64,000 bases of DNA from an uncultured archaeon (lineage in GTDB: Archaea; Thermoproteota; Nitrososphaeria; Nitrososphaerales; Gagatemarchaeaceae): the NCBI GenBank assembly GCA_963799775.1, contig CAWCYD010000003.1:448001-512000 (forward strand), written 5' to 3'. The translations under genes were made by a program, and so were the position numbers. Below the pieces are notes generated by a model. That model had not been told where the DNA came from. It saw only the letters and a program-made list of their open reading frames with translations, and made no database searches. Position 1 is the stretch's first letter; every line of letters begins with the position of its first letter. Positions 1,082-51,015 of this stretch are shown in pieces.

Positions 1082-4000
1082 TTGCAAACGCCCGTCGCGA
1101 AGCAATTCGACCTAGCCGAGAGGCTGCGCTCCCTCACAGAACCCGCGAGCGACCTCGAAGAGGGGCTCCTGGTGTCGGCGACATACGACGGCCAGACCCG
1201 GAAGGCCGTGCTGAAATTCTACGACGCGAAGCGGGAGAGGGTCTGGCTTTGGGAGGACAAGACGGGGCACAAGCCGTACTGCTACACCAGGCTCTCCGAG
1301 TCGGAGATAGCCGCGGCGGGCGTCGAGGTGGGGAAGAACGGGGTCTTGGCCATCGAGCCTGCCCAGCGCCGAGACCTTCTGAGCGACTCCGAAGTGACGG
1401 TGAGGAGGATAACCGCGTCCGACCCGCTGGCGATAGGTGGCTCCCCGGGGAGTCTTCGGGAGAAGATGGAGTGCTGGGAGGCGGACATCAAGTACTTTGA
1501 GAACTACGTTTACGACAGGGGCCTGAGGGTCGGGGCATACTACAAAATCTCCCACGGGGAGCTCTCCCCGGTGGAGAAGGAGGTCGCCGGCGAGGTGAAG
1601 CGGTCCCTTGACTCGATTCTAGCCAGGGCCACTGGCGACGCCGCCCAATACATCAACGCCTGGGCAGAGCTGCTGGGCCAGCCGCTTTCGGGATTCAAGA
1701 GGATCGCGTGCGACATCGAGGTCGCCAACGAGGAAAACCGCATCCCCGACCCGGAGCTCGCGGATAGGAAGGTGATCGCGGTGTCGTTCTACAACGACAA
1801 GGAGTCGATTGTCTACCTGCTCGACGAGTCCGGGCAGGACAAGTCGCTCGACGTGGCGCTGACGGGGTACACGCCCACGGTCTTCGCCGACGAGGCCTCC
1901 CTGCTGAGGGCGACCTTCGCGAAGATGATGGAATACCCCTTCCTCATCACTTTCAACGGGGACGACTTCGACCTCCGGTACCTCAAGCACAGGGCTTTGA
2001 GAAAAGAGATAGGCGTCAAGGAGGAGGAGATCCCGATCGCGCTCCAGAGGCAGGAGGCCTCCCTCAAGCACGGAGTCCACATCGACCTCTACCGCTTCTT
2101 CAACAACCGATCGATCCAGGTCTATGTCTACAACAACAGGTACACGGAGCACACGCTCAACGGGATCGCGGAGGCGCTCCTCGGGAAGGAGAAGATACCC
2201 TTCGAGGGCAACATCGCCGAGCTCCCCCTCGTGACGCTCGCCGACTACTGCCTGAACGACTCTACGCTCACCTACGAACTCACTGCGGCCAACGACTCTC
2301 TTCTGATGAAGATGGTCCTGGTAATCGCGAGGATCGCCAAGATGCCCATGAACGATGTCGTCAGGCTCGGGGTGTCCAACTGGATCCGGAGCATGATATT
2401 CTACGACCACCGCCGCATCGGCGCGCTCATCCCTCGCTCGGACGAGCTCAAGGAGAAGGGCGGCGCCTCGTCGGAGGCGATAATCAAGGGCAAGAAGTAC
2501 AAGGGCGGGCTCGTCATCGAGCCGAAGCCAGGAATCTACTTCGGGGTGTCGGTTCTCGACTTCGCCTCCCTCTACCCGAGCATCATCAAGGTCCACAACC
2601 TCTCCTATGAAACCGTCAACTGCATCCATGAGGAGTGCAGGACCAACCGGGTACCGGACACCGACCACTGGGTGTGCACGAAGCGGAGCGGGATAGAGAG
2701 CCTCCTCATCGGCTCGCTCCGCGACCTTCGCGTCGGCCACTACAAGGCGCTCTCTAAGGACAAGACCCTCCCCAAAGAGACGAGGGACCTCTACACCACT
2801 GTCACTCAGGGCCTAAAAGTTTTCCTGAATGCGTGCTTCACTGGGGACACGCTGGTCGTCACTCCTACCGGGATCAAGAACATCAAGGAGTTTAGGGTGG
2901 GAGACCAAGTCGTCAACGTCAACCCGGAGACCCTCGAGGTAGAGGTGGACAAGGTCGTGGCGGTTCAGGCCTATCAGTACAACGGCGACATCTACCACTT
3001 TCAAGACAAGAGGTTCGTAGACCTCATGGTCACCCCTAACCACAGACTCTTGACCGTCGATAGGCGCAGATCCTCGAGAAGCGGGGCAATGTTCAGGTCG
3101 GCCGAGGAGGTCCGAGACCTTGCGAACGTTGCCATTCCAAAACTGCGAGCGGGCCTGAGACGGGACTCGGCCAACCGCAAGGTCTCGTTGCTCAAGGTGG
3201 CCCAAGAGTGCGGCGCGTTTGCGAGCTTCTATCCACCCTCAGGGGTCCGGCTGATAGACTGGTTCCGGACGCTTCAGCCCGAGCTGCAGATGAAGACCCG
3301 CGAGCACGGACGGGTCAGGAAACTCGGAACTCAACCCACCTGGGAGATTGCGGTGAAGAACCGGCAGTCGCGCTACGAGCTGCCCGCTTACGCGGTCGAA
3401 GAAGTCGACGTCGACGCCGTCGAGGCCGCCGGAGGCCGGGTCATGCTCGGCGAGTCGCACTCAAGGCAAGTCCCAGCTCGCTATGTCGCGGGGGACCTCG
3501 CTTCGCTCTGCGGCTGGTTCGTCTCCGAAGGCAACCCACACGCCACGCCGATGAAGGTGTACGCGAGCGGCCGGGTCCGTGGCAAGACCTCGGGTATCAC
3601 GATTTCGCAAGGGTTCGGGAAAGGGAACGCTATGGGAACCCACTACAGGGTTGAGATACAAGGTCTCCTCGGCAGGCTCGGCCTCAAGAGCATCCAAGAT
3701 TCGGGCCGAAACAAGTACTTCAAAGTCAGCAGCTCGATCCTGAACCGCTGGATGCTCTCGCAGTGCTACGTCGAGGGTCAGGACCATGACGCCGCCGCGA
3801 AGAGAATCCCCGATTTCGTCTTCGAATCGAGCGAGACGTTGAGGGAATTCCTCGCCTCGGCCTACAAAGGCGACGGCAACAAAAGGGGTGTCAGGTATTC
3901 GACGGTGAGCACGCGGCTTGCGCATGACATGGTCGTCTTGCTGAGCCTCCTTGGGTACAAGGCCAGGCTGACCTACGAGAGCGAGTCCCGCATCTACCGG

Positions 4001-6345
4001 ATAGTCTTCAAGAACGTCAGTTCGAAGCTAACCTACTCCGGCCAGGAGAAGCGCAAGAGACTGAAAATCCTGCCCTTCGAAGGGACCGTCTACTGCGTGA
4101 CGACCGAGAGGAACCACACAGTCATCGCCGGCAGGAACGGCAGGTTCGTCCCTGTCGGTCAGTCTTACGGTGTGATGGGATTTGAAACGTTCGCGCTCTA
4201 CTGCCTACCCGTCGCAGACGCGACGGCCGCCTTTGGTAGGGACGCCATAACCAGGACGATCGAGAAATGCAAGCAAGAGGACGTCTCTGTGATCTACTCT
4301 GACAGCGTCACAGGAGAGAGATGCGTGACGGTGATGGATCCAGCCGGTATGGTCAAGGTGATGCCGATAGCGGAGTTCTTTGACGCTTTCGGCGAAGTCA
4401 CCACACGCTCGGACGGAAAGGATGAGGTGCATCCCAAAGGATGGAAGACCCTGGGCACCAGCATCGAGACCGGAGATACGGAGTGGAAGGAAGTGAAGGC
4501 GGCCATCAGGCACCGGAACGCGAAGAAAATCTACAGAGTATGGGACAAGTTCGGCTCAACAAGGGTGACCGAAGACCATTCGCTCGTGGCTTATCGCGGC
4601 GGCGTCCGCGTACTGTCGAGGCCGCAGGGAACCTTCAGGGGAAGCACCTGGTGCGCATCAACAGGTTTCCAGAGGGAGGCAGTATCGATTTGATTGATAC
4701 CTATAAAGTGCTCGAGCCAGTGAAGTACCGCGTTCGCTACAAAGGAAAATGGAAGACGCTCCAAGCGCACTGCGACGAGAGCAGGGTTTGGTACTCCTGG
4801 ACTGAGAGAGCGAGACCAATCAAGCTGAAACGGTTTATCGGAATCGGGTCGCCCGAGTTTAGGGCCCTCGTGGAACTCTTGGGCGCTTACGTCCCAGAGG
4901 GAAGCTCAAGCACGCCAGAGACAACCAAGTCTCACATCGGCGCTTCGATTGCGTGCTCCGACGTCCAATGGCTCGAGCGCCAGCGGCAGAACTACTATTC
5001 CTTGTTCTCAGATGCAAAGGCGTCGATTACCGAATCAAGCCCAGGAACGCGTGAGCTCACGTATGTCTCGACGTCAGGCAAGACCATACAAATCCAGTAC
5101 CAAGATAAGACCCACAAGCTGCAGATGATGAACGAGATCTCAGCCGTTTTCTTCAAGGCGTTCTGCGGCCAGAAGAGCTTCGGAAAGCAGCTTCCAGACT
5201 TCATATTCAATGCGCCGGACGAGTTCAAGCGACTCATGCTCGAGAACCTGATTAAAGGAGATGGCTCGCGCAAGTTTGGGAGAGCATACTCTCAGGAATA
5301 CAAGCTGAAGAACTTCAAGTACGAGAGCAGGTCTCTTCGATTGACTAGCGGGTTGTCCACGCTTCTCATGCAGCTGGGAATAAACCACACTGTCGCATTT
5401 CGACCGAGCAAGAACACATATGCTATCGCGACTTCGACCAAGTACAACAATACAAGCCGATCGCCTCGGACAATCGAGGAGAGCTATGAGGGATACGTCT
5501 ATGACCTGTCCGTCGAAGGATATCACACTTTCAGCGACGCGTGCGGAAGCGTGGTGCTCAAGAACACGGACTCTTTGTTCATCGAGAACCCCGACAAGGA
5601 GAAGGTCTCCGGCGTGCTAAAGTGGGCCGAGAAGGAGCTCGGGGTGGAGCTCGAGGTCGACAAGGCGTACCGATACGTCGCGTTCAGCCAGCTCAAAAAG
5701 AACTACTTCGGCGTCCTGCAGGATGGCACTGCCGACATCAAAGGATTGACGGGCAAAAAATCGCAGACCCCCGAGTACCTCAAGAACCAGTTCTACGAGA
5801 TGCTAGGCATTCTCGGCGCCGTCTACAGCCAGTCAGACTTCGACCAGGCAAAGGCCCGGATCAAGAAGCTGCTGACTGACATGGTGACTAGCCTGAAAGA
5901 TAGGAAAGTCCCCATCGAGGCCATCTCGTTCAACGTCATGATGGGCAAGTCCATCGGCGGATACAAGTCCACGCGGACGCCAGAAGCCCCGAAGAAGGAG
6001 GCCCAGCGCAGCGGCGCTCAGGCATCTCTCCGCGAGGGCCCTCAAGAGCCGCCGCAGCAACCCGGCATCTCGGCGGCAGAGATGAGCGGCCTCCCCCAAC
6101 ACGTAAAGGCCGCGATCCTCATGAGAAACTCGAACAAGGAGATTAGGGCGGGCGAGCTCATCTCGTTCGTGAAGACAAAGGGCGGCCACGGGGTCAAGCC
6201 CACCGTCCAGGCCAAGCCCGACGACATCGACGTGGACAAGTACATCGAGTACGCCAGCTCCATGTTCGACCAGGTCCTCAGCGCCCTCGACCTGTCTTTC
6301 GAGCAGGTGGTCCCCAAGACCAGCCTTGATGCCTTCTGGAGCTAG
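1082..6345 (+). CDS. polB: Family B DNA polymerase (PolB1-type) with two inteins; one frameshift near 4630
   Basis: Exonuclease motifs DIEV, FNGDDFD and YCLND; polymerase motifs DFASLYPSII, KVFLNA|SYG, YSD|TDSLF and KKNYFG. ORFs 1082-4693 and 4441-6345 join in the second intein. Confidence 0.95.
2834..4162 (+). other. Intein 1 in PolB (443 aa, LAGLIDADG type, ends in Gln)
   Basis: Starts CFTGDT; block B VTPNHR; LAGLIDADG-like helices LCGWFVSEG and FLASAYKGDG; ends VYCVTTERNHT...VPVGQ followed by Ser. Removal restores KVFLNASYG. Confidence 0.92.
4304..5565 (+). other. Intein 2 in PolB (about 421 aa, LAGLIDADG type)
   Basis: Starts SVTGER; block B VTEDHS; helices LLGAYVPEG and LENLIKGDG; ends YVYDLSVEGYHTF...VLKN followed by Thr. 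Removal restores YSDTDSLF. Confidence 0.92.
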
Positions 6346-42323: not shown

Positions 42324-43565
42324 CTATTCTTTCTGACCTCGAGCGCCTGAGGAAGCTGGTTGAGAAGACTCAAGAGAAGCAATCCTCTTCTGAAGGCTCA
42401 CGATGAGCTCCATCATGGGCTTCAGCTCCTTGTCCTTCTCGTCCCTAGCTATCGCCTCGTTGAAATCAAGTGAGACGTGCGGCTCGATCCTGAGATAGGC
42501 CTGTCTCAGGTCTTCGGGATGGACCTGGTCTCTGTCGTCGTAGACGGCCGCGATCCCTCCTTCGTGCCCCATCATCTCCTCGACGAAAGCGGACTTCACC
42601 CCGCAGTGCTCGGCTTCGGTCTTGAAGCTGTGTCGCAGCATGTGGCTCCTCCAGCTCGAGGGTTCTCCGTTCTCGACCATCCCCTGGGCGTGCATCCTCA
42701 AGGCGATCTTCCTCATTTGCTGATTGAGCCACTTTGGGTCGACTCCGGAGCCCTGTAGCTTGCCGGCAAATACCAGGTCAGAGGGCAGGGGTTCTCGCGC
42801 CATTTCCTCCGCCCATCGCTGCCGGAGGAGCCTCAAGTGCTCGATAGAGTCGCGCCCGAGGAACGTGTACCATGGTTTCTTGTGATTCTTCCTTCCCAAG
42901 AACGAGAGCTTCAGTGGATGATCCGCCCTGCGAAGGCCCTCGTCGATGTCCTTCCAACGCAACCCGAGGATCCTGTTGACCTCGCAGCTCGACTGCCAAA
43001 CTAGAAGCAGCGGCGTCCGTATCTGCAGGGGGAGGGCCTTCAGCACCTTGCGGATGTCCTCCGAGCTCAGGGGCTTGTCTCGCGGCTCCCCGTCCGACTC
43101 CGCTATCCTCACCTCCCCGAACAAAGGGCTGTCGTTCCGCTCGTACCACTTCTTGACCGTCGACGCCGCCCCCGCCCTGTAGCTCATCGCGTACCCCTCG
43201 AGCTCCTTGTTGACGAAGGTCTCGAGCCATTCCCGGTGCTTCCTCTTCTGCGCGACGTCCTCCGCCTCCGACCGGTAGATGCACCTCAGATTGTCCGTGA
43301 TGAGCTCGTCGGGCGCCAGGTTCGTCGTCCCCGACCCCTTGAGCCACCTGAAGTACAGCAGGAGGTGGAGCGAATACACGGATTGCACCCTCACCTTCCC
43401 GTAGGAGCTGAGGAATCGCTTCACCGCCTCGCTTGGCCCTATCTTCCTTAGGTTGTTCTCGAGAGCTTTCTGGGCTCTCCGGATGACGGTCGGAGTGCTC
43501 CGACCCGCCTCGATTGCCGTTGCTTGCATGTTCCTATCAGTAAAAGCCTTCTTGGTTGTGGACAT
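42324..43565 (-). CDS. Tyrosine recombinase/integrase
   Basis: HMLRHSF, MMGH and catalytic Tyr (AVYD); box I is atypical (SSCEVNR). Confidence 0.88.
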   Translation of the reverse strand: MSTTKKAFTDRNMQATAIEAGRSTPTVIRRAQKALENNLRKIGPSEAVKRFLSSYGKVRVQSVYSLHLLLYFRWLKGSGTTNLAPDELITDNLRCIYRSEAEDVAQKRKHREWLETFVNKELEGYAMSYRAGAASTVKKWYERNDSPLFGEVRIAESDGEPRDKPLSSEDIRKVLKALPLQIRTPLLLVWQSSCEVNRILGLRWKDIDEGLRRADHPLKLSFLGRKNHKKPWYTFLGRDSIEHLRLLRQRWAEEMAREPLPSDLVFAGKLQGSGVDPKWLNQQMRKIALRMHAQGMVENGEPSSWRSHMLRHSFKTEAEHCGVKSAFVEEMMGHEGGIAAVYDDRDQVHPEDLRQAYLRIEPHVSLDFNEAIARDEKDKELKPMMELIVSLQKRIASLESSQPASSGARGQKE

Positions 43566-43921: not shown

Positions 43922-44485
43922 CTACGCGCGCCACCAGTCAAAGCCGAGGAAGTCCACCCTTCGGTCCTCCACGTTCACTATCGCGACTATGAACTGCTTC
44001 CTGACCGTAGTGGCCAACCTCCCGGACCTGACCATCCCAGTAGCCGTCACCTGAGCGGTGTCGTTCTCGACCTGGACGAGGTACGGGGCATGGTCGATCC
44101 CAGGCCCATGCTCATAGACCGCGAAGTCAGACCCGAACTTTATCCCAGGGCCGACGACGAAGCCAGATTCTCGCAACAGGCTGTAGACCAGATACTGCTC
44201 CCTGAAGTTAGGGTAGCCCGAGGCGCACAGGGCCTCCACCTGCTTCGCGGATAGCATCTCGCCCTGCTCGCTCTCCACCCGAAGCTTCCTCTTCTTCACG
44301 AGGTAGTAGCTCTCCATCAAGTCGAGGATGAGGGGGGCATCGAACTCGAAGTCCTTGGGCTTTGGGATTCCTAGGGGCTTCCCGTAGTAGGAGTCCTTGA
44401 AGAGCCTCCTCGAGGCCTCCACATCCCAGACCACTATCCTGTTCTCGAACAGCCTGCCGGTCGCGGTCTTTTGGGTATGGGGCAT
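43922..44485 (-). CDS. endA: tRNA splicing endonuclease, catalytic subunit
   Basis: GIKFGSDFAVYEHGPGIDHAPYLV...VRK (Y/H/K triad). Confidence 0.93.
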   Translation of the reverse strand: MPHTQKTATGRLFENRIVVWDVEASRRLFKDSYYGKPLGIPKPKDFEFDAPLILDLMESYYLVKKRKLRVESEQGEMLSAKQVEALCASGYPNFREQYLVYSLLRESGFVVGPGIKFGSDFAVYEHGPGIDHAPYLVQVENDTAQVTATGMVRSGRLATTVRKQFIVAIVNVEDRRVDFLGFDWWRA

Positions 44486-45311: not shown

Positions 45312-46616
45312 ATGTTGGGGGCTGGGAGACGTTCGCTTCTTGGGAGATCCCCTGCGGCGACGCTCGCGTTCTTGGTCGTCCTGATGGTCCTCGCAGTCTT
45401 CGCCCCAAGGGTCCATGCGGCAAGCGAGAACTCGAGCGTCCTCGTCGTCAACTTCGACGTCCCCGTCGACCCTGGTTCCTCCACCATGATGGCAGCGGCG
45501 GTCGCCACGGCCAAGTCCACAAACGCCTCGGCCATCGTCATCGAGATGAACACGCCCGGCGGCTACCTCAGCGACATGCTCGGCATCGTGTCGAGCATCC
45601 AGCAGGCGAACCAGTCCGGCATCCCCACCTACACCTACGTCCCTCCCGACGCCCTCGCCGCGTCGGCGGGCAGCTACATCGCCATGGCGAGCAACGGGAT
45701 CTTGATGGGTCCGGGCTCGGAGATCGGGCCGTCCACCCCGATAGTCGAGGGGGGCACCGCGCTGGAGCAGAACCACACGGAGGACGCGATGATCTCGCTG
45801 ATGGTCAGCCTCGCCGACATGTGGGGGCGGAACTCGACAGCCGCCCAGGCCATGGTGGTCTCGGACATCGCGTACTCTGCCGCACAGGCGTATCAATACC
45901 ACCTGACCGAGGGGAACGCCACCACCCTCCAGGGCGCGCTCTCGCAGTTCGGGCTCGGCCCCAGCTACACCGTCGTCCAAGAGGGCGTCTACGACCAGTT
46001 CCTCAGCGCGCTCAGCGACCCCAACCTCTACGGCATCCTGATACTCCTCGGGGCCTTCGCCATCGTCCTCGACCTCTGGCACCCGACGTTCGTCCTCTCG
46101 ATCGCGGGCGCCATCGCCCTGGTCGCGGGCCTGGTCGGAGCCGAGGTCGTTGGCTCCTCGTTGCTGGGCCTGGTCGTCATCTTCACGGGCGTTGGGCTCA
46201 TGTTCCTGGAGCTCAGGCTCGGGCACGGGTTCGCCATGATGGGCGGCGCCGTCGTCGGGGCTGTGGGCGTCTACCTCCTCTTCCAGGGGGTCCAGTACTC
46301 CTCCTCAACTATCATCGACTATACCCAGGTGGAGGCGGTCGTCTTGGGAGCCGTCGGAGTTTTAGGGGGGCTCTACATCAGGTGGGTAGTGGGGCCGTTG
46401 AGACACAGGCGGAACTTGACCGGTTCGGAGTCGCTGGTAGGGAAGCGCGGCGTCGCAATCTCGCCCACTGAGGTCAGGGTCGACGGCGTAATCTGGCGCG
46501 CGCGGATCGACTCGGGCGAGCTCAAGAAGGGGACCCAGGTGGAGGTGAAGGCGGTCGAAGCCCTGGTCCTCCGCGTGGTTCCGGTCGAAGAGAACCGCGC
46601 GCTCGATGCGCTCTAG
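45312..46616 (+). CDS. nfeD: NfeD-family membrane-bound ClpP-class serine protease
   Basis: MNTPGG and AASAGSYIA; TM region; C-terminal OB fold (VRVDGVIWRA). Confidence 0.9.
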   Translation: MLGAGRRSLLGRSPAATLAFLVVLMVLAVFAPRVHAASENSSVLVVNFDVPVDPGSSTMMAAAVATAKSTNASAIVIEMNTPGGYLSDMLGIVSSIQQANQSGIPTYTYVPPDALAASAGSYIAMASNGILMGPGSEIGPSTPIVEGGTALEQNHTEDAMISLMVSLADMWGRNSTAAQAMVVSDIAYSAAQAYQYHLTEGNATTLQGALSQFGLGPSYTVVQEGVYDQFLSALSDPNLYGILILLGAFAIVLDLWHPTFVLSIAGAIALVAGLVGAEVVGSSLLGLVVIFTGVGLMFLELRLGHGFAMMGGAVVGAVGVYLLFQGVQYSSSTIIDYTQVEAVVLGAVGVLGGLYIRWVVGPLRHRRNLTGSESLVGKRGVAISPTEVRVDGVIWRARIDSGELKKGTQVEVKAVEALVLRVVPVEENRALDAL

Positions 46617-46695
46617 CTCCCTCGATTCTGGCGACCAGTAGACCGACAGAACGCCTATATGGGGCGTCGGCCTTCTGGGGTCTTGATGAATTGAT

Positions 46696-47541
46696 TTGGT
46701 GGATGTAGCTTCGCTCGCCGTAGAGGTTCTCGCTGTCCTCATCGTCTTGGGGATCCTCCTGAGCGGGGTTCGCGTGCTCCGCGAGTGGGAGAGGGCGCCG
46801 ATCCTGAGCCTCGGCAGGTACAAGGGCCTCAGGGGTCCTGGCATCATCTACGTCGTGCCGTTCATCAACAGGGTTCCTTTCGTCATATCGACCCGTCTCC
46901 AGACGGTTTCCTTCAAGACGGAGCAGACCTTCACGAAGGACAACGTCCCCGTCGTGGTCGACTCCGTGATGTACTTCCAGCCCGCTGACCTGCAAAAGGT
47001 GGTCCTTGGAGCTGAGAACTATATGGTCGCGACCCAGCTCGCGGCCCAGACCACCCTCAGAGAGGTGATAGGTCAGGTGAGCTTCGACGACCTCCTCACC
47101 GAGCGCGAGAAGATTGGGGCCAAGGCGCGAGAGGTGATAGACAGCAAGACGGAGGTGTGGGGCGTGAAGGTCACGGCCGTAGAGATAAGGGACGTCGGGA
47201 TTCCTTCCGCGCTGCAGGACGCGATGTCTAGGAACGCCCAGGCGGAGAGGGAGAGGAGGGCGAGGGTGACTCTCGCGCTCGCCGAGTTCGAGGCAGCTCA
47301 GAAGATGGTGGACGCCGCGAACCTCTACGCGAACAACGACAGGGCCTTCCAACTGAGGTGGATGAACATCATCTACGAGCTGGGACTGCAGGGAAAGAAC
47401 ACGATCCTTCTCATCCCGTCAAACATCCCCATTGCAGGGACGGTTGCAGGGACGACCGGTGGGTCGACTATCGCGCCCGTGGGCGTGCTGGGCATCCAAG
47501 AGCTGGCGAAGAAGGCACAGGCCGCTTCGGACGATAAGTAG
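46696..47541 (+). CDS. SPFH/stomatin-family protein
   Basis: GPGI, TKDNVPV, AQTTLREVIG and AQAERERRA; usual partner of nfeD. Confidence 0.92.
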   Translation: MVDVASLAVEVLAVLIVLGILLSGVRVLREWERAPILSLGRYKGLRGPGIIYVVPFINRVPFVISTRLQTVSFKTEQTFTKDNVPVVVDSVMYFQPADLQKVVLGAENYMVATQLAAQTTLREVIGQVSFDDLLTEREKIGAKAREVIDSKTEVWGVKVTAVEIRDVGIPSALQDAMSRNAQAERERRARVTLALAEFEAAQKMVDAANLYANNDRAFQLRWMNIIYELGLQGKNTILLIPSNIPIAGTVAGTTGGSTIAPVGVLGIQELAKKAQAASDDK

Positions 47542-47715
47542 CCTCCCAAAGGCTGTAAGCCAGCGGCTTCTCACGCCTTCGACTGGACGCGCTTCTGCAC
47601 CGAGTACATCTCTAGTATTGCAGAGAAGGCCGAGAGCAATCATGGCCGAGGCGGTTTCAGTAGCACCGTTACGGCGGTTTTCTCTATCAAGCTCTAAGCT
47701 TTAGGAGCATACTTG

Positions 47716-48288
47716 CTAGCTCGACAGAGTGAGAATCGTCTGAGAAGAGTATCCGCCGATGTATAGATCAAGAGTGTACTCGCCCGCCGTGATGAGAACG
47801 CCGTTTGATGTGGTAACAGCGTCCCAAGAGGTGTTCCATGAATACGACTCCCCTCGGCCTAGCGAAACCTGCGAAAGTGGGGAAATCTGCTGGTGGAAGA
47901 CAACGCTCCCTTGCTCGTTCGTGATTGTCATGTTAGAGAAGGATACCTGTGCGCGAGAAGTTGAATTGTCGTTCACGAGAATCCCCTCGAAACTCACAAC
48001 GCTGCCCACCTTCGCCACCTCTGAAAAGCACGTGATTAGAGTCAGACCTGCGGCAAAAGTGCTGGACTCGTTTTGCCCCGACGGACACGTCGGCAACCCC
48101 GTCGCCGAACCCACAGTCGCTGAAACTGTAATCGCACTGCTCGTTGCTCTAGCAGCCGAGGCACCCGTTGAGGTAGAAGCTAATGGCGTCGTTGTAAGGG
48201 ACCCTGTCGTTGTCACATCACTACCACCGCTGCCCGAAAGATTGGATAGGACGAGCACGCCAGTAGTCACAATCAGGGCAACCACCAC
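47716..48288 (-). CDS. Cassette 3 gene: membrane-anchored Ser/Thr-rich protein with a beta-sandwich-like domain
   Basis: N-terminal TM, Thr/Ser linker and YSWNTSWD...AGEYTL; start may lie a few codons upstream. Confidence 0.7.
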   Translation of the reverse strand: MVVALIVTTGVLVLSNLSGSGGSDVTTTGSLTTTPLASTSTGASAARATSSAITVSATVGSATGLPTCPSGQNESSTFAAGLTLITCFSEVAKVGSVVSFEGILVNDNSTSRAQVSFSNMTITNEQGSVVFHQQISPLSQVSLGRGESYSWNTSWDAVTTSNGVLITAGEYTLDLYIGGYSSQTILTLSS

Positions 48289-48464
48289 AACAATGACAAT
48301 CTTGTTCAGGGTTAATCACACGCGCACCATTCTTGCGGTAGAGCCTGTGGTTGAATTGGGGAATCCTTCGGGATAAAGTCTTCGGACTTTCCTACTGTTG
48401 TTTGGATTGGACTCGTTTTTGTAGACCGTACATCTCTAGCAATGCGTTCGACTGGCGGTTGATT

Positions 48465-48677
48465 CTACTTTTCCATCTTGTCTTTTGCCAAAAAGCTCCA
48501 AGACAGCAAGATTAATCCGAAAACAAGAAAAATCAAACCGGAATAAAGATAACCGTAATCATGAATGGGACCAGTGCAACGCCCCTGACAGAAAATCTCG
48601 TAGGGGTAGCCCACAATCATAATGTAAATTCCAAATAATGAAAGCAGAAGGCCGATGACTAACAATGATATTCTCAA
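48465..48677 (-). CDS. Cassette 2 gene: small two-TM protein with CxxxC loop
   Basis: Two hydrophobic helices around FCQGRC; AT-rich codons. Confidence 0.7.
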   Translation of the reverse strand: MRISLLVIGLLLSLFGIYIMIVGYPYEIFCQGRCTGPIHDYGYLYSGLIFLVFGLILLSWSFLAKDKMEK

Positions 48678-48865
48678 GATTGGCTACCTCTCGACTGTTC
48701 TACTCTTTGCTAGCGTTCTGAATAAGTGCTATCCACCTGTTCAAGGATTCCGGGCAGGCTATCTTCGGTCCTCAGGGCACGCTCATTGTTGTTTTGATTG
48801 GACGCGTTTCTGTAAACAATACATCTCTCCCTGATTCTTATGGCTGTAACATATCGGCGGAAGTC

Positions 48866-49102
48866 TCAGGGTTTTCGCCCTAACTGGACATTCTCGTCTA
48901 TAGTGAGTTCGTGTTCGTAGTCGGCATCTTCGTATCTTATCATTTGGCCTCCAACGGCAAGAATTGCACCCTGTTTGAACTGCATTCTCCTCCTGATGAC
49001 TTGTGGCTCAAGCACTTCGATCTCTGCCGGATGCTCTGCTAGGAACAGTGTCCATCCCTCGCCGAGATACTGGCCGACTTTGTGCAATGTGAGATACGTC
49101 AT
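48866..49102 (-). CDS. Cassette 1 gene: small soluble hypothetical protein
   Basis: 78-aa ORF co-oriented with lig and contained between two repeats. Confidence 0.5.
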   Translation of the reverse strand: MTYLTLHKVGQYLGEGWTLFLAEHPAEIEVLEPQVIRRRMQFKQGAILAVGGQMIRYEDADYEHELTIDENVQLGRKP

Positions 49103-49245
49103 TCATTGCGACCGAGGATACTCAATCCAATTTGGGTCAAGCACGAGTTCCGTGAAGCTGATGAAAGTAGTCGCGCGACCCTGCATGAAGTTAAGCAATT
49201 GCGGATTGATTTAGCCTTGGTGGCCGGCTTAATCATGCGCCGGAT

Positions 49246-51015
49246 TCACTTTTGTTTTGATTGGACGCGTTTTTGTAATCCATACATCTCGACCAGCTCC
49301 TTCACGGTCGTCGCGTCTTCCGGCCCCTTCTCGTCGCGTATCTTGCCCGTGAACTTCGGGAACCTCAGGGCGAGGCCGCTCCCCTCCCTCATCTTGTTCA
49401 TCGCCGCCGGGTGGACGGGGGAGAGGGTTATCTCCGAGGCGATCGTCTCTATCACGACCTTGGGCCTGTACCAGACGTCCGGCACCAGCTTTGATTCCAC
49501 GTTCGGCGGTCTGACCAGGCTCTCGTAAGGCTTCAGCAGCTTTGGGAACCTCTCCAAGTCCGCGTCTGAGAAGCCGGTCCCTATCTTCGTGACGCTCGGG
49601 AACGTCTTCTTCTCCGAGTCGTACGCGGCGAGCAGGTAGGCACCGTAGACTCCCGCCCTCCTCCCCCTGCCGTGGAAGGCACCGATTATCGCCAAGTCTA
49701 TCGTGTCGGTGAGCTCGCTGCTGTACTCGCGCTTCAGCTTGATCCAGCCGAACTCCCTGGCCCCGGCCCGGTATGTCCCGTCGGGCTTCTTCGCCATTAT
49801 GCCCTCGCAGCCCTCGGTGATCGCAAGCTCCATGAACTTCTCCATCTCGTCGGCGGTCTCCACCATCTTCGACGGCACGGGACGCGTGAACTCCGTCACC
49901 TCGACTATCCTCTGGAGCTCCGCCCTCCGCTTCAGGTATGGGAGCGACGTGATGTCCTTCCCGTCCACGTAGAGGGCGTCGAAGAAGTTGACGGCGACGG
50001 GGTACTTCTTCATGGCCTCCTCGATGCCGTGCTTCCTCCTCCTGTGCATGAGCTCTTGAAACGGAAGGTACTCGTTGGTGTCCGGGTTGATCGCGACCAC
50101 CTCGCCTTCGAGCACGGCGCGCTTCGACTTTACGTGGTCTCTTACGAAGCGGACGACGTCCGGGTAGTTGGCGGTGATCCTCTCGAGCCTCCTTGAGAAG
50201 ACGTCGACCTTCTCCCCGTCCTTGTGCATCTGGAGCCGCTCCCCGTCCAGCTTGTACTCGACGGCCACAGGCTTGCCTATCTGGTCGAGTATCGCCTGGG
50301 CCGAAGGCAGCCTCTCGGCGAGCATGGGCCTTATCGGCTTGCCGACCTCCAGGTGGATCTTCTCGACCCCTGCCAGGCCCTCCCCTGCCGCGACCTCCAC
50401 CACGTATCCGAGGTCGGAGGTGACGTTGTACGCCCTCTCGAGCGCCTTCCTGTTTGTCTTGCCCCCGAGGTGGGCGACGGCCACAGCGTCCAGGATGGTG
50501 TAGTCCGCGACCCCGAGCCGAAGGACGCCCATCGCGGTCCTGAGGATGTACTTCGCCTCGAGCGGCGTCGCGTCGTTCAGCAGGCTCACTAGCTCTCTGA
50601 GCTTCGACTCCACCGAGCCGCCGCCGCTCGTCTTCGCTATCTTGAGCAAGGACTCGTAGACCCTTCTGAGCGTGAGCGGCTCCGCGACGAGGGGCCCCTG
50701 CCTCGCGCCGCCGCCGGAGGAGAGCAACGCCTGTCCCGCGCTACCGATGTCACCGGCCTTGATGTACGCCTCTCTCACCTTCTCAGGAGACTTTCCTGAA
50801 GCGGTCGAAAGGGCCCGGAGCGCGAACTTCTCGGCGATGCCTAGCTCTATGCCCTCGTAGTCCGGACGGAGCTTCCCCTGCATGAGGTACACGAGGGTCG
50901 GGAGCTCGGCCTTGGGGGTCTCCTTGAAGAGAGAGGCAAGGATATCGGTCATCTCCAGCCTTCCCTGCGTGCCCTCCAGCTTCTCGAAGTATTCTGCGAC
51001 GAGCGAGTACTTCAT
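49246..51015 (-). CDS. lig: ATP-dependent DNA ligase
   Basis: EYKLDGER, VLEGEVV, EGIMAK, WIKLK and ALRFPKF. Confidence 0.97.
   Translation of the reverse strand: MKYSLVAEYFEKLEGTQGRLEMTDILASLFKETPKAELPTLVYLMQGKLRPDYEGIELGIAEKFALRALSTASGKSPEKVREAYIKAGDIGSAGQALLSSGGGARQGPLVAEPLTLRRVYESLLKIAKTSGGGSVESKLRELVSLLNDATPLEAKYILRTAMGVLRLGVADYTILDAVAVAHLGGKTNRKALERAYNVTSDLGYVVEVAAGEGLAGVEKIHLEVGKPIRPMLAERLPSAQAILDQIGKPVAVEYKLDGERLQMHKDGEKVDVFSRRLERITANYPDVVRFVRDHVKSKRAVLEGEVVAINPDTNEYLPFQELMHRRRKHGIEEAMKKYPVAVNFFDALYVDGKDITSLPYLKRRAELQRIVEVTEFTRPVPSKMVETADEMEKFMELAITEGCEGIMAKKPDGTYRAGAREFGWIKLKREYSSELTDTIDLAIIGAFHGRGRRAGVYGAYLLAAYDSEKKTFPSVTKIGTGFSDADLERFPKLLKPYESLVRPPNVESKLVPDVWYRPKVVIETIASEITLSPVHPAAMNKMREGSGLALRFPKFTGKIRDEKGPEDATTVKELVEMYGLQKRVQSKQK

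Follow-up and report, generated by a model that had tools for sequence, protein, structure and literature searches.

The ATP-dependent DNA ligase gene (lig) of an uncultured archaeon of the Gagatemarchaeaceae is followed, downstream of its stop codon, by three further copies of its own last codons, and between successive copies lies a small gene unrelated to lig. The locus is part of a 64,000-nucleotide stretch of contig CAWCYD010000003.1 (positions 448,001 to 512,000; this whole stretch is called the window below), and the question that it raises is how the gene tails came to be repeated and what inserted the DNA between them. We consider it fairly probable that the lig 3' end is an attachment site, at which small cassettes without a recombinase were inserted successively by site-specific recombination.

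Four copies of the ligase tail delimit three unrelated cassettes

A degenerate pattern of the lig tail matched the window at exactly four places, all on the minus strand (49256-49290, 48793-48827, 48402-48436 and 47578-47612), whereas none of 100 shuffled versions of the window contained any match. The same four tails were the only copies in the whole source genome, G000, a metagenome-assembled genome (MAG) of 2.47 Mb (completeness 81.67%, contamination 2.77%). Their start-to-start distances are 463, 391 and 824 bp. A preliminary description of the window had reported a four-fold occurrence of the last 13-14 lig codons on the minus strand, delimiting units of these three sizes, and both statements hold. 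It had further stated that similarity to lig stops just upstream of an invariant GAGATGTA. In the alignment the similarity indeed runs from GAGATGTA to the stop codon, with none directly upstream of GAGATGTA, but the motif is not strictly invariant elsewhere, as two internal sites in relatives read CGGATGTA. The tail copies differ from each other by 18-36%. The features of the locus, including the attachment (att) sites and the open reading frames (ORFs) of the cargo, are as follows.

49246..51015, minus strand: lig, ATP-dependent DNA ligase of 589 amino acids (aa); ORF with all three ligase domains in Pfam (DNA_ligase_A_N, _M and _C)
49246..49290, minus strand: att copy 1 (attL), the current lig tail, element type, EMYGLQKRVQSKQK and stop; from pattern search, alignment and site table
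48828..49245, minus strand: body of cassette 1, unit of 463 bp, G+C content (GC) 0.48; cargo ORF 48866-49102 (78 aa) plus a same-frame upstream part, 49103-49198
48783..48827, minus strand: att copy 2 (internal), displaced element-type tail, EMYCLQKRVQSKQQ and stop; from pattern search and site table
48437..48782, minus strand: body of cassette 2, unit of 391 bp, GC 0.43; cargo ORF 48465-48677
48392..48436, minus strand: att copy 3 (internal), displaced element-type tail, EMYGLQKRVQSKQQ and stop; from pattern search and site table
47613..48391, minus strand: body of cassette 3, unit of 824 bp, GC 0.52; cargo ORF 47716-48288 (190 aa)
47571..47612, minus strand: att copy 4 (attR), displaced native lig tail, EMYSVQKRVQSKA and stop, in G+C-rich codons; of the type found at all 8 empty sites
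46696..47541, plus strand: SPFH/Band 7 gene (Pfam), convergent with lig, the conserved right-hand neighbour of the site

The ligase aligns over its full length with solved archaeal ligases; in 2hiv, the Sulfolobus structure, the EMY motif of the tail falls in the C-terminal region. Copies 1-3 encode EMYGLQKRVQSKQ followed by Q or K and the stop codon (one of them with C for G), in AT-rich codons. As copy 4 matches the tail type of empty sites in relatives, the native host tail is this distal copy and the ligase now ends in a foreign one: the body of lig is host sequence and its final 14 codons come from cassette 1.

The genes that flank the array have a GC of approximately 0.60-0.66, against 0.48, 0.43 and 0.52 in the cassettes. 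Each cassette contains one main ORF (78, 70 and 190 aa), all three on the lig strand, and a Pfam scan of these cargo ORFs returned no family and no recombinase. These results agree with the earlier picture of AT-richer units, each with one unrelated small gene on the lig strand and without a recombinase. Beyond the tails, no repeat is common to the three spacers, which are also unrelated to lig. This absence of homology between the spacers bears on the simplest explanation of the repeats, a tandem duplication or an assembly artefact of the lig 3' end. Nothing beyond the repeat itself and the status of G000 as a MAG speaks for it, the copies diverge as stated above, and the same architecture with different spacers is present in independent assemblies (three other genomes and nine metagenome contigs). 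This explanation is already refuted and retains practically no probability.

The 78-aa ORF of cassette 1 is the distal part of a gene of ~108 aa that is split by an in-frame TGA at 49103-49105. Its homologues include an uninterrupted 108-aa protein in G021 (60% identity) and one in G185 (57%), and 4 of 97 family genomes contain a match. The lig-proximal cassette, presumed to be the newest, thus bears a broken or recoded gene. The cargo of cassette 2 is a hydrophobic protein of 70 aa with no Pfam family above the cut-off. The cassette 3 protein is likely to be exported, as predicted from a hydrophobic N-terminal segment followed by a Ser/Thr-rich stretch. Its sole clear homologue in the genus (32% identity, E 3.9e-20) is encoded in G013, inside a cassette that lies behind the tail of a radical-SAM gene.

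Occupied and empty ligase sites in related genomes

Nine genomes of the subclade were compared over the interval from lig to the SPFH gene. Three cassettes are found in G000, two in G022 and one each in G017 and G020, and the site is empty in G011, G006, G018, G008 and G019. Twelve metagenome contigs matched the pattern, nine of them from occupied sites (with one duplicate, L056 being identical to L047) and three from empty ones (L046, L050 and L052). At the eight empty sites the ends of lig and of the SPFH gene are only ~15-60 bp apart. Cassette number and content therefore vary between relatives while the replacement tails are conserved, and the repeated insertion bounded by att sites that had been proposed for the window is borne out by empty and differently filled sites. 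Two hallmarks of integrative elements at gene 3' ends are present: direct att repeats at both ends, one of which restores the lig 3' end, and an empty site in close relatives, here eight times.

The G022 cassettes measure 770 bp, coding for a Cys-rich protein of 205 aa, and 2332 bp, with HicB/HicA, an insertion sequence (IS)-type DDE transposase in two frames and a 110-aa ORF. G017 contains one cassette of 985 bp with an isochorismatase gene on the opposite strand, and its host tail is decayed; in G020 both tails of the single 1332-bp cassette are decayed. Among the contigs, two cassettes each were found in L045 (1278 and 2209 bp) and L053 (2108 and 1203 bp), and single ones in L047 (772 bp), L051 (2085 bp) and L054 (920 bp); the array of L055 is interrupted by the contig end, and L048 and L049 show the right-hand end only. 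The resulting 14 lig cassettes span 391-2332 bp. Their cargo is unrelated and comprises HicAB, isochorismatase, ice-binding-like, Zn-dependent dehydrogenase, LamG-type, winged helix-turn-helix and DUF6114 proteins as well as unknowns, some of them exported. The main cargo gene is on the opposite strand in 5 of the 14, and on the lig strand in all three of G000. A Pfam scan of the cassette ORFs, which covered all but the 436-aa ORF of the G020 cassette, detected no recombinase in the 14 cassettes, the sole exception being the secondary IS-type DDE transposase within one of them, and genome scans with PF00589 gave no integrase match within the lig arrays of G000, G017 and G022.

Small units without an integrase could also be decay remnants, that is, full-size integrative plasmids or proviruses that entered at lig and lost the integrase and nearly everything else, the array being their graveyard. 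Integrated archaeal elements without an integrase have been ascribed to integrase loss after integration (PMC8371274), and tycheposons integrate serially, push older elements outward and leave degenerate remnants and partial target copies (10.1101/2020.12.28.424599). Decay is seen here as well: in both tails of G020, in the attR of G017, possibly at one site of L053, and in the cargo gene of cassette 1, which is split by a TGA. However, all 14 cassettes are at most 2.3 kb long and none is big enough for autonomy, no integrase fragment is present in the arrays of G000, G017 and G022 or in the scanned cassette ORFs, and no backbone sequence is common to the cassettes except in one orthologous pair. 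Most cargo ORFs are intact and packed tightly between the sites, and random deletions would not stop at an intact 45-bp site every time. Small size is also seen in at least six cassettes at other gene tails of G000 and in about 20 behind the radical-SAM gene. We therefore regard the remnant explanation as unlikely.

Independent insertions are not countable on the lig tree, because its clade of 12 is unresolved except for the pair of G022 and L053 (support 98/92). These two have one cassette in common (91% identity), with differing cassettes on both sides of it: next to lig, L053 has an extra stretch that contains an ORF of 334 aa, and on the distal side the two have unrelated cassettes. Moreover, host tails and flanks of 95-98% identity are directly preceded by three different cassettes, in L054, in L048/L053 and in G022. 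These differences indicate gain or loss at more than one position of the array.

Some further observations were made at these sites. A third, decayed site near position 6443 of L053 is only suggestive. In L047 (910-1662) and L048 (358-1117) a stretch of ~750 bp lies between the displaced host tail and the SPFH gene; the two stretches are 70% identical to each other and absent at other sites, and may represent an older insertion with a decayed outer site. A second lig copy with two in-frame TGA codons is located on another contig of G017 (C5:5037-6776; this genome is 9% contaminated), and a lig match in G007 (C1:486222-487962) is split near its 3' end.

The exchange point is confined to about six base pairs

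The att sites were assembled in a table of 34, consisting of 8 empty sites (attB), 10 lig-proximal sites (attL), 5 internal sites and 11 distal sites (attR). The native type, EMYS[MVL]QKRV.SKA, comprises copy 4 and all eight empty-site tails; the element type, EMYGLQKRVQSKQ plus one variable residue, comprises copies 1-3 and every one of the 10 lig-proximal tails at occupied sites. From codon 4 to the stop codon, attL is element-type in 10/10 cases and attR native-type in 11/11. The wobble base of the tyrosine codon (TAY) is C in 8/8 attB and 10/11 attR and T in 8/10 attL, and thus moves with the incoming tail. The two internal sites that start with CGGATGTA indicate that the first two bases stem from the preceding cassette. 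The pure attL and attR types, the wobble pattern and CGGATGTA together place the crossover within approximately GATGTA (about 6 bp), a fixed and short exchange point. A window of ~6 bp has the size of the overlap region of tyrosine recombinases. The motif CGTCCAGTCG, which occurs in the native lig tail and in one KaiC-like tail, was also considered as the exchange site and was ruled out by the pure attL and attR types from codon 4 onwards.

This pattern bears on another alternative, in which there is no dedicated recombinase and small circles that chance to contain the 3' end of a gene are inserted through a single homologous crossover (Campbell type). An essential gene would stay intact only where the insert brings the true 3' end, and selection by itself would then yield arrays of tails and cargo. 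A second block of 8 bp, CGCGTCCA, is identical in both tail types further along the tail. No hybrid tail arising from exchange at this block was found among the 34 att sites, all attL/attR pairs pointing to the first identical block as the place of exchange, and this is the main reason for which site-specific recombination is preferred. Homology at lig is also restricted to 45 bp with ~65-75% identity between native and element tails, the longest identical runs being 8-9 bp. The same left boundary and the same element-type tail recur despite unrelated cargo, which is not expected of random donor fragments, and no lineage was found whose native lig ends in an element-type tail. Homologous insertion is, in our view, distinctly improbable at this gene.

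The spare tails appear to be maintained as protein-coding DNA. The 13 distinct element-type tails contain 51 minority letters, of which 37 stand at third codon positions, an excess from which we conclude that these tails evolve as coding sequence. Precisely EMYGLQKRVQSKQQ is encoded by 7 of the 13. The unusual residues due to non-synonymous differences (Cys, Arg and Leu) are located in displaced internal copies. Presumably, a cassette with a tail that damages the ligase would be lost.

In the site-specific model, each cassette would begin with a 45-bp replacement tail in AT-rich codons (EMYGLQKRVQSKQ plus one residue and stop) and would then carry one or two cargo genes. The cassette tail and the current lig tail would recombine within the shared GAGATGTA, and since the crossover lies inside this motif the ligase would keep an intact C-terminus, encoded by the newcomer. 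The older tail would be pushed downstream and the original host tail would end up last, beside the SPFH gene, so that the array may reflect the order of cassette arrival. The cassettes may move as circles, and the recombinase would act in trans, most likely being a tyrosine recombinase of the genome or one on an unsampled episome.

Candidate recombinases and points against the model

Five PF00589 matches were found in G000, the nearest of which lies 4 kb from the array.

42324..43565, minus strand: tyrosine recombinase gene, 413 aa, 4 kb beyond the array, candidate (Pfam Phage_integrase, E 1.8e-9)

This gene has no repeat in common with its surroundings, and its only relative among five related genomes is in G017 (46% identity), away from the lig contig. 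Three more paralogues, of a 430-aa integrase family, are present in G000 (C3:48196-49197, 1347671-1348759 and 1415568-1416773; 29-32% identity); they were not listed by the PF00589 scan at E<=0.001, which brings the integrase count of G000 to at least eight. No integrase of G000 lies within or beside a tail array, nothing convincing was seen in a search for att-like repeats around the five PF00589 matches, and G000 contains no serine recombinase (PF00239). The 430-aa family is patchily distributed in the genus and absent (E<=1e-20) from G011, G013 and G019, three genomes with large radical-SAM arrays.

Folding of both DNA strands at the four sites of the window revealed no attC-like hairpin (z -0.80 to +1.28), and the best scores of inverted repeats at the sites were no better than those of shuffled sequences. 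In a search for a dif-like 11-6-11 dyad, the best 11-nt dyad had 6-8 matches and was within the shuffle range at 7 of the 8 sites tested; this test is indirect, as the dif site of this lineage is not established.

The search for autonomous elements with an element-type tail extended to 185,579 species genomes, to 241 million metagenome records (degenerate pattern, exact matches only), to 301 genomes from the order (at most 3 mismatches) and to IMG/VR (three patterns). Of the sequence words sampled from the stretch, 31% were present in one sequencing run; together with two runs of the same study it yielded only short, low-depth Logan contigs with no joints.

Several of the results count against site-specific insertion by an enzyme encoded elsewhere. 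When the five PF00589 matches of G000 were compared with ten others from G017, G022, G011, G006 and G018, no family followed the occupancy of lig, and no PF00589 match is located on the lig-array contigs of G017 or G022. No autonomous element with an element-type tail was found outside lig arrays, nor, in any of the collections, an element that combines such a tail with an integrase; the patterns were strict, so that a diverged attP could escape them. Neither a circular junction nor an excised form was seen in the short, low-depth contigs of the sole matching run, which weigh neither for nor against circles. The missing dyad symmetry is unusual for a simple tyrosine-recombinase core. Finally, all four gametes occur in 46 of 91 informative site pairs of the element tails, and two tails, the attL of G017 and the empty site of L050, look mosaic. 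The four-gamete signal could reflect exchange or conversion inside tails, or recurrent synonymous change; together with the two mosaic tails it fits exchange inside tails, as in insertion by homologous recombination. The empty site of L050 (~3060-3101, minus strand) has host-type first and last codons around element-like middle codons (TTG CAA AAA CGA GTC CAA), and may be an excision or conversion scar or merely the product of local codon drift.

The architecture and its recurrence, the empty sites, the confined exchange point and the coding constraint on the spare tails are observed at the lig sites as such. Judged from sequence, the lack of hybrid tails and the short exchange point favour site-specific recombination with an enzyme supplied in trans. 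In outline, the model put forward in the preliminary description is the best available, with circles and a trans-acting recombinase as its two key putative steps.

Tail-anchored cassettes at other genes of the genus

G000 was scanned for gene tails that are repeated downstream. Tail-only repeats in which the stop codon is kept were found at a membrane-protein gene, at two KaiC-like genes and at a radical-SAM gene, and possibly at a NUDIX gene, and none of these cassettes contains an integrase. The tail of the 594-aa membrane-protein gene (..VAIFKLKP and stop) is present in three copies in locus L070 (G000:C3:965500-972500; 1658-5958), with downstream copies at 3601-3653 (66% identity) and 1658-1710 (89%) and a repeat length of 53 nt. 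Its cassettes, of 573 and 1943 bp, have a coiled-coil ORF and PIN-domain/antitoxin-like genes as cargo. In the two KaiC-like paralogues, L072 (G000:C1; 4261-6105) and L075 (G000:C3:614500-620000; 2128-3667), the last 100-106 nt are repeated once downstream, and the cassettes of 1068 and 763 bp contain a UPF0175 antitoxin gene and a PBECR2-like nuclease ORF. The radical-SAM gene, with an HMPTM-type zinc ribbon (..EEVHIQPITGT and stop; L073, G000:C2:283000-292000), has a tail repeat of ~210 nt, and its cassettes code for Fic/Doc with DUF2283 and for exported proteins.

Larger radical-SAM arrays are found in relatives, with eight tail copies in G013 (L081), seven in G011 (L080), six in G018 (L082) and four in G019 (L083). 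The cassettes range from ~0.39 to 4.4 kb, mostly below 2.7 kb, and their cargo includes PIN and HicA proteins, an ABC transporter, a PKD protein, endonuclease V, a phosphorylase, a methyltransferase and regulators. One att-to-att unit of 1280 bp occurs in two of these arrays (84% identity), at the second position in G011 and at the fourth in G013, and its neighbours differ. These loci support a general habit of the genus, probably one of non-ammonia-oxidising thaumarchaea, in which the tails of several conserved genes accumulate cassettes behind them.

The repeat lengths differ between loci and copies, from 53 nt to ~210 nt in G000, and the upstream extent of homology varies between the copies in radical-SAM arrays. 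The absence of an integrase from these loci of G000 is likewise as expected if no dedicated enzyme exists, and insertion by homologous recombination therefore stays alive as an explanation.

With these loci included, we tentatively propose a chromosomal cassette-capture system of this soil-archaeal genus that would work like an integron and be built differently, with miniature recombinase-less cassettes stacked behind several housekeeping genes, each using its spare copy of the final codons of a conserved gene as recombination site, and with a recombinase encoded elsewhere that would shuffle them. Its sites would possibly be lig, the radical-SAM methyltransferase-like gene (up to eight sites), the KaiC-like ATPases and the membrane protein.

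Two loci stand apart from these arrays. In G018 (C3:437151-438197; L084), a radical-SAM tail fragment of 84 aa has an integrase-like ORF at a distance of 3 kb. Two further tail fragments are found 29 kb and 48 kb beyond this fragment, the full gene is missing from the vicinity, and the locus may be a composite island. No other tail site gives any hint of a nearby integrase. The ORF was considered as an enzyme tied to the tail fragment, and the link is unproven, there being no second site within 40 kb upstream. In L074 (G000:C2:226000-229000), the end of a 366-aa open frame (..DLQAGRLSKKS and stop) and the sequence that follows it are repeated three times with a 177-bp period near C2:227531. 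The arrangement resembles a tandem repeat more than an array of cassettes, and the 366-aa frame is unannotated and possibly not a gene.

Comparison with known mobile systems

Integration into gene 3' ends, tandem arrays and att-flanked elements without an integrase are known; what makes the lig arrangement more interesting is its multi-locus, genus-wide spread. The elements of Krupovic et al. 2019 are reportedly kb-sized and identified largely via integrases or casposases, and to our knowledge lig is not among their targets. Five major classes of integrated mobile genetic elements (iMGEs) have been distinguished in thaumarchaea, including proviruses, casposons, insertion-sequence-like elements and putative integrative-conjugative elements (PMC6563490). 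In that survey, 14 of 68 integrated elements lie in 3'-distal regions of protein genes, with the stop codon supplied by the element, and tyrosine-recombinase elements build arrays by reusing one site. The lig cassettes resemble such iMGEs in their location at the 3' end of a protein gene, in the element-supplied end and stop codon, in the direct att repeats, in the empty sites and in tandem reuse (PMC6563490). They differ from them in size, the 14 lig units measuring 0.39-2.3 kb, and in that no recombinase was found: the element-encoded integrase expected of an archaeal iMGE is absent from the scanned cassette ORFs and from the arrays of G000, G017 and G022. The preliminary description knew of no account of this arrangement, which is an overstatement, because 3'-end integration with a supplied stop codon, tandem reuse and integrase-less elements are all in print (PMC6563490, PMC8371274). 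In the open-access literature we found no account of archaeal arrays made only of mostly single-gene, recombinase-less cassettes of less than 2.5 kb in protein-gene tails.

Cis-mobilizable elements (CIMEs) and the accretion arrays of streptococcal integrative and conjugative elements (ICEs) at the 3' end of the housekeeping gene fda are flanked by att sites, lack recombination genes, occur in tandem and are probably moved by the integrase of a related element. CIMEs are defined by att sites in common with a known ICE, occur in bacterial hosts and are usually larger than single genes. Like CIMEs, the lig cassettes lack recombination and transfer genes and are flanked by what look like functional att sites. 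In contrast to CIMEs, no autonomous partner with a lig-type att was found with strict patterns in genomes, metagenomes and viral contigs, including the 301 genomes of the order.

The term integron-like, used in the preliminary description, is appropriate as an analogy only. Canonical integrons with attC sites and IntI exist in archaea (Ghaly et al., 10.1101/2022.02.06.479319). As with these, the lig cassettes are mostly single-gene units bounded by sites, with diverse cargo including toxin-antitoxin genes, no recombinase inside and varying positions (10.1101/2022.02.06.479319). Unlike integrons, the lig sites have no attC palindrome and no conserved adjacent integrase (intI/attI), the recombination site is a coding gene tail under constraint at the protein level, and the orientation of the cargo is mixed.

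Integrative mobile elements exploiting Xer (IMEX) make use of the host Xer enzymes at dif, and the pdif modules of Acinetobacter plasmids are recombinase-less units. The lig cassettes are likewise recombinase-less, stand in tandem at one chromosomal site and would depend on a host or foreign enzyme in trans. The dif site consists of two 11-nt inverted repeats around a 6-nt spacer (PMC8371274); no such 11-6-11 dyad above chance is present at lig. Without an attC-like hairpin, a dif-like dyad or a conserved adjacent integrase, the arrays are not an integron, nor are they shown to be of the Xer/dif type, and because several gene tails serve as sites in one genome, a single dif-type site is not a sufficient explanation. 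The tycheposons of Prochlorococcus also show serial integration at one site, outward displacement of older units and partial target copies between units, and their cargo is adaptive (10.1101/2020.12.28.424599). Tycheposons have their own tyrosine recombinase and target tRNA genes, whereas the lig units lack a recombinase and sit in protein-gene tails (10.1101/2020.12.28.424599).

If the cassettes are mobile as such, they would represent a second system, of independent construction, in which single genes are stored and exchanged at fixed sites of the chromosome, archaeal and with coding tails in place of folded attC sites. It would help to explain how these soil archaea take up small accessory genes, among them those for toxin-antitoxin pairs, for exported proteins and for enzymes, and a 45-bp site with an exchange window of ~6 bp would offer a handle on a new recombinase specificity. 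Repeated gene tails behind conserved genes flag insertion hotspots, which annotation pipelines overlook when no integrase is present.

Genomic surroundings of the ligase locus

On the far side of the SPFH gene lies its partner.

45312..46616, plus strand: NfeD gene, partner of SPFH (Pfam; only the synteny is conserved)

An Rfam scan of 46000-50000 gave only two sub-threshold chance matches, and there is no turn in GC skew at the lig site within the window. A topoisomerase IB gene was found in G000, which makes a thaumarchaeal host probable. The segment 35000-43565 of the window has a lower GC (0.51-0.57) and terminates in the tyrosine recombinase gene 42324-43565; no borders of this island were found. 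Beyond the recombinase gene lies a small ORF that was labelled TRAM-like by eye from its sequence, with no Pfam call, and the 3' end of a 187-aa ORF (43922-44485) that on a similar by-eye reading, outside the Pfam scan, encodes a putative tRNA-splicing endonuclease.

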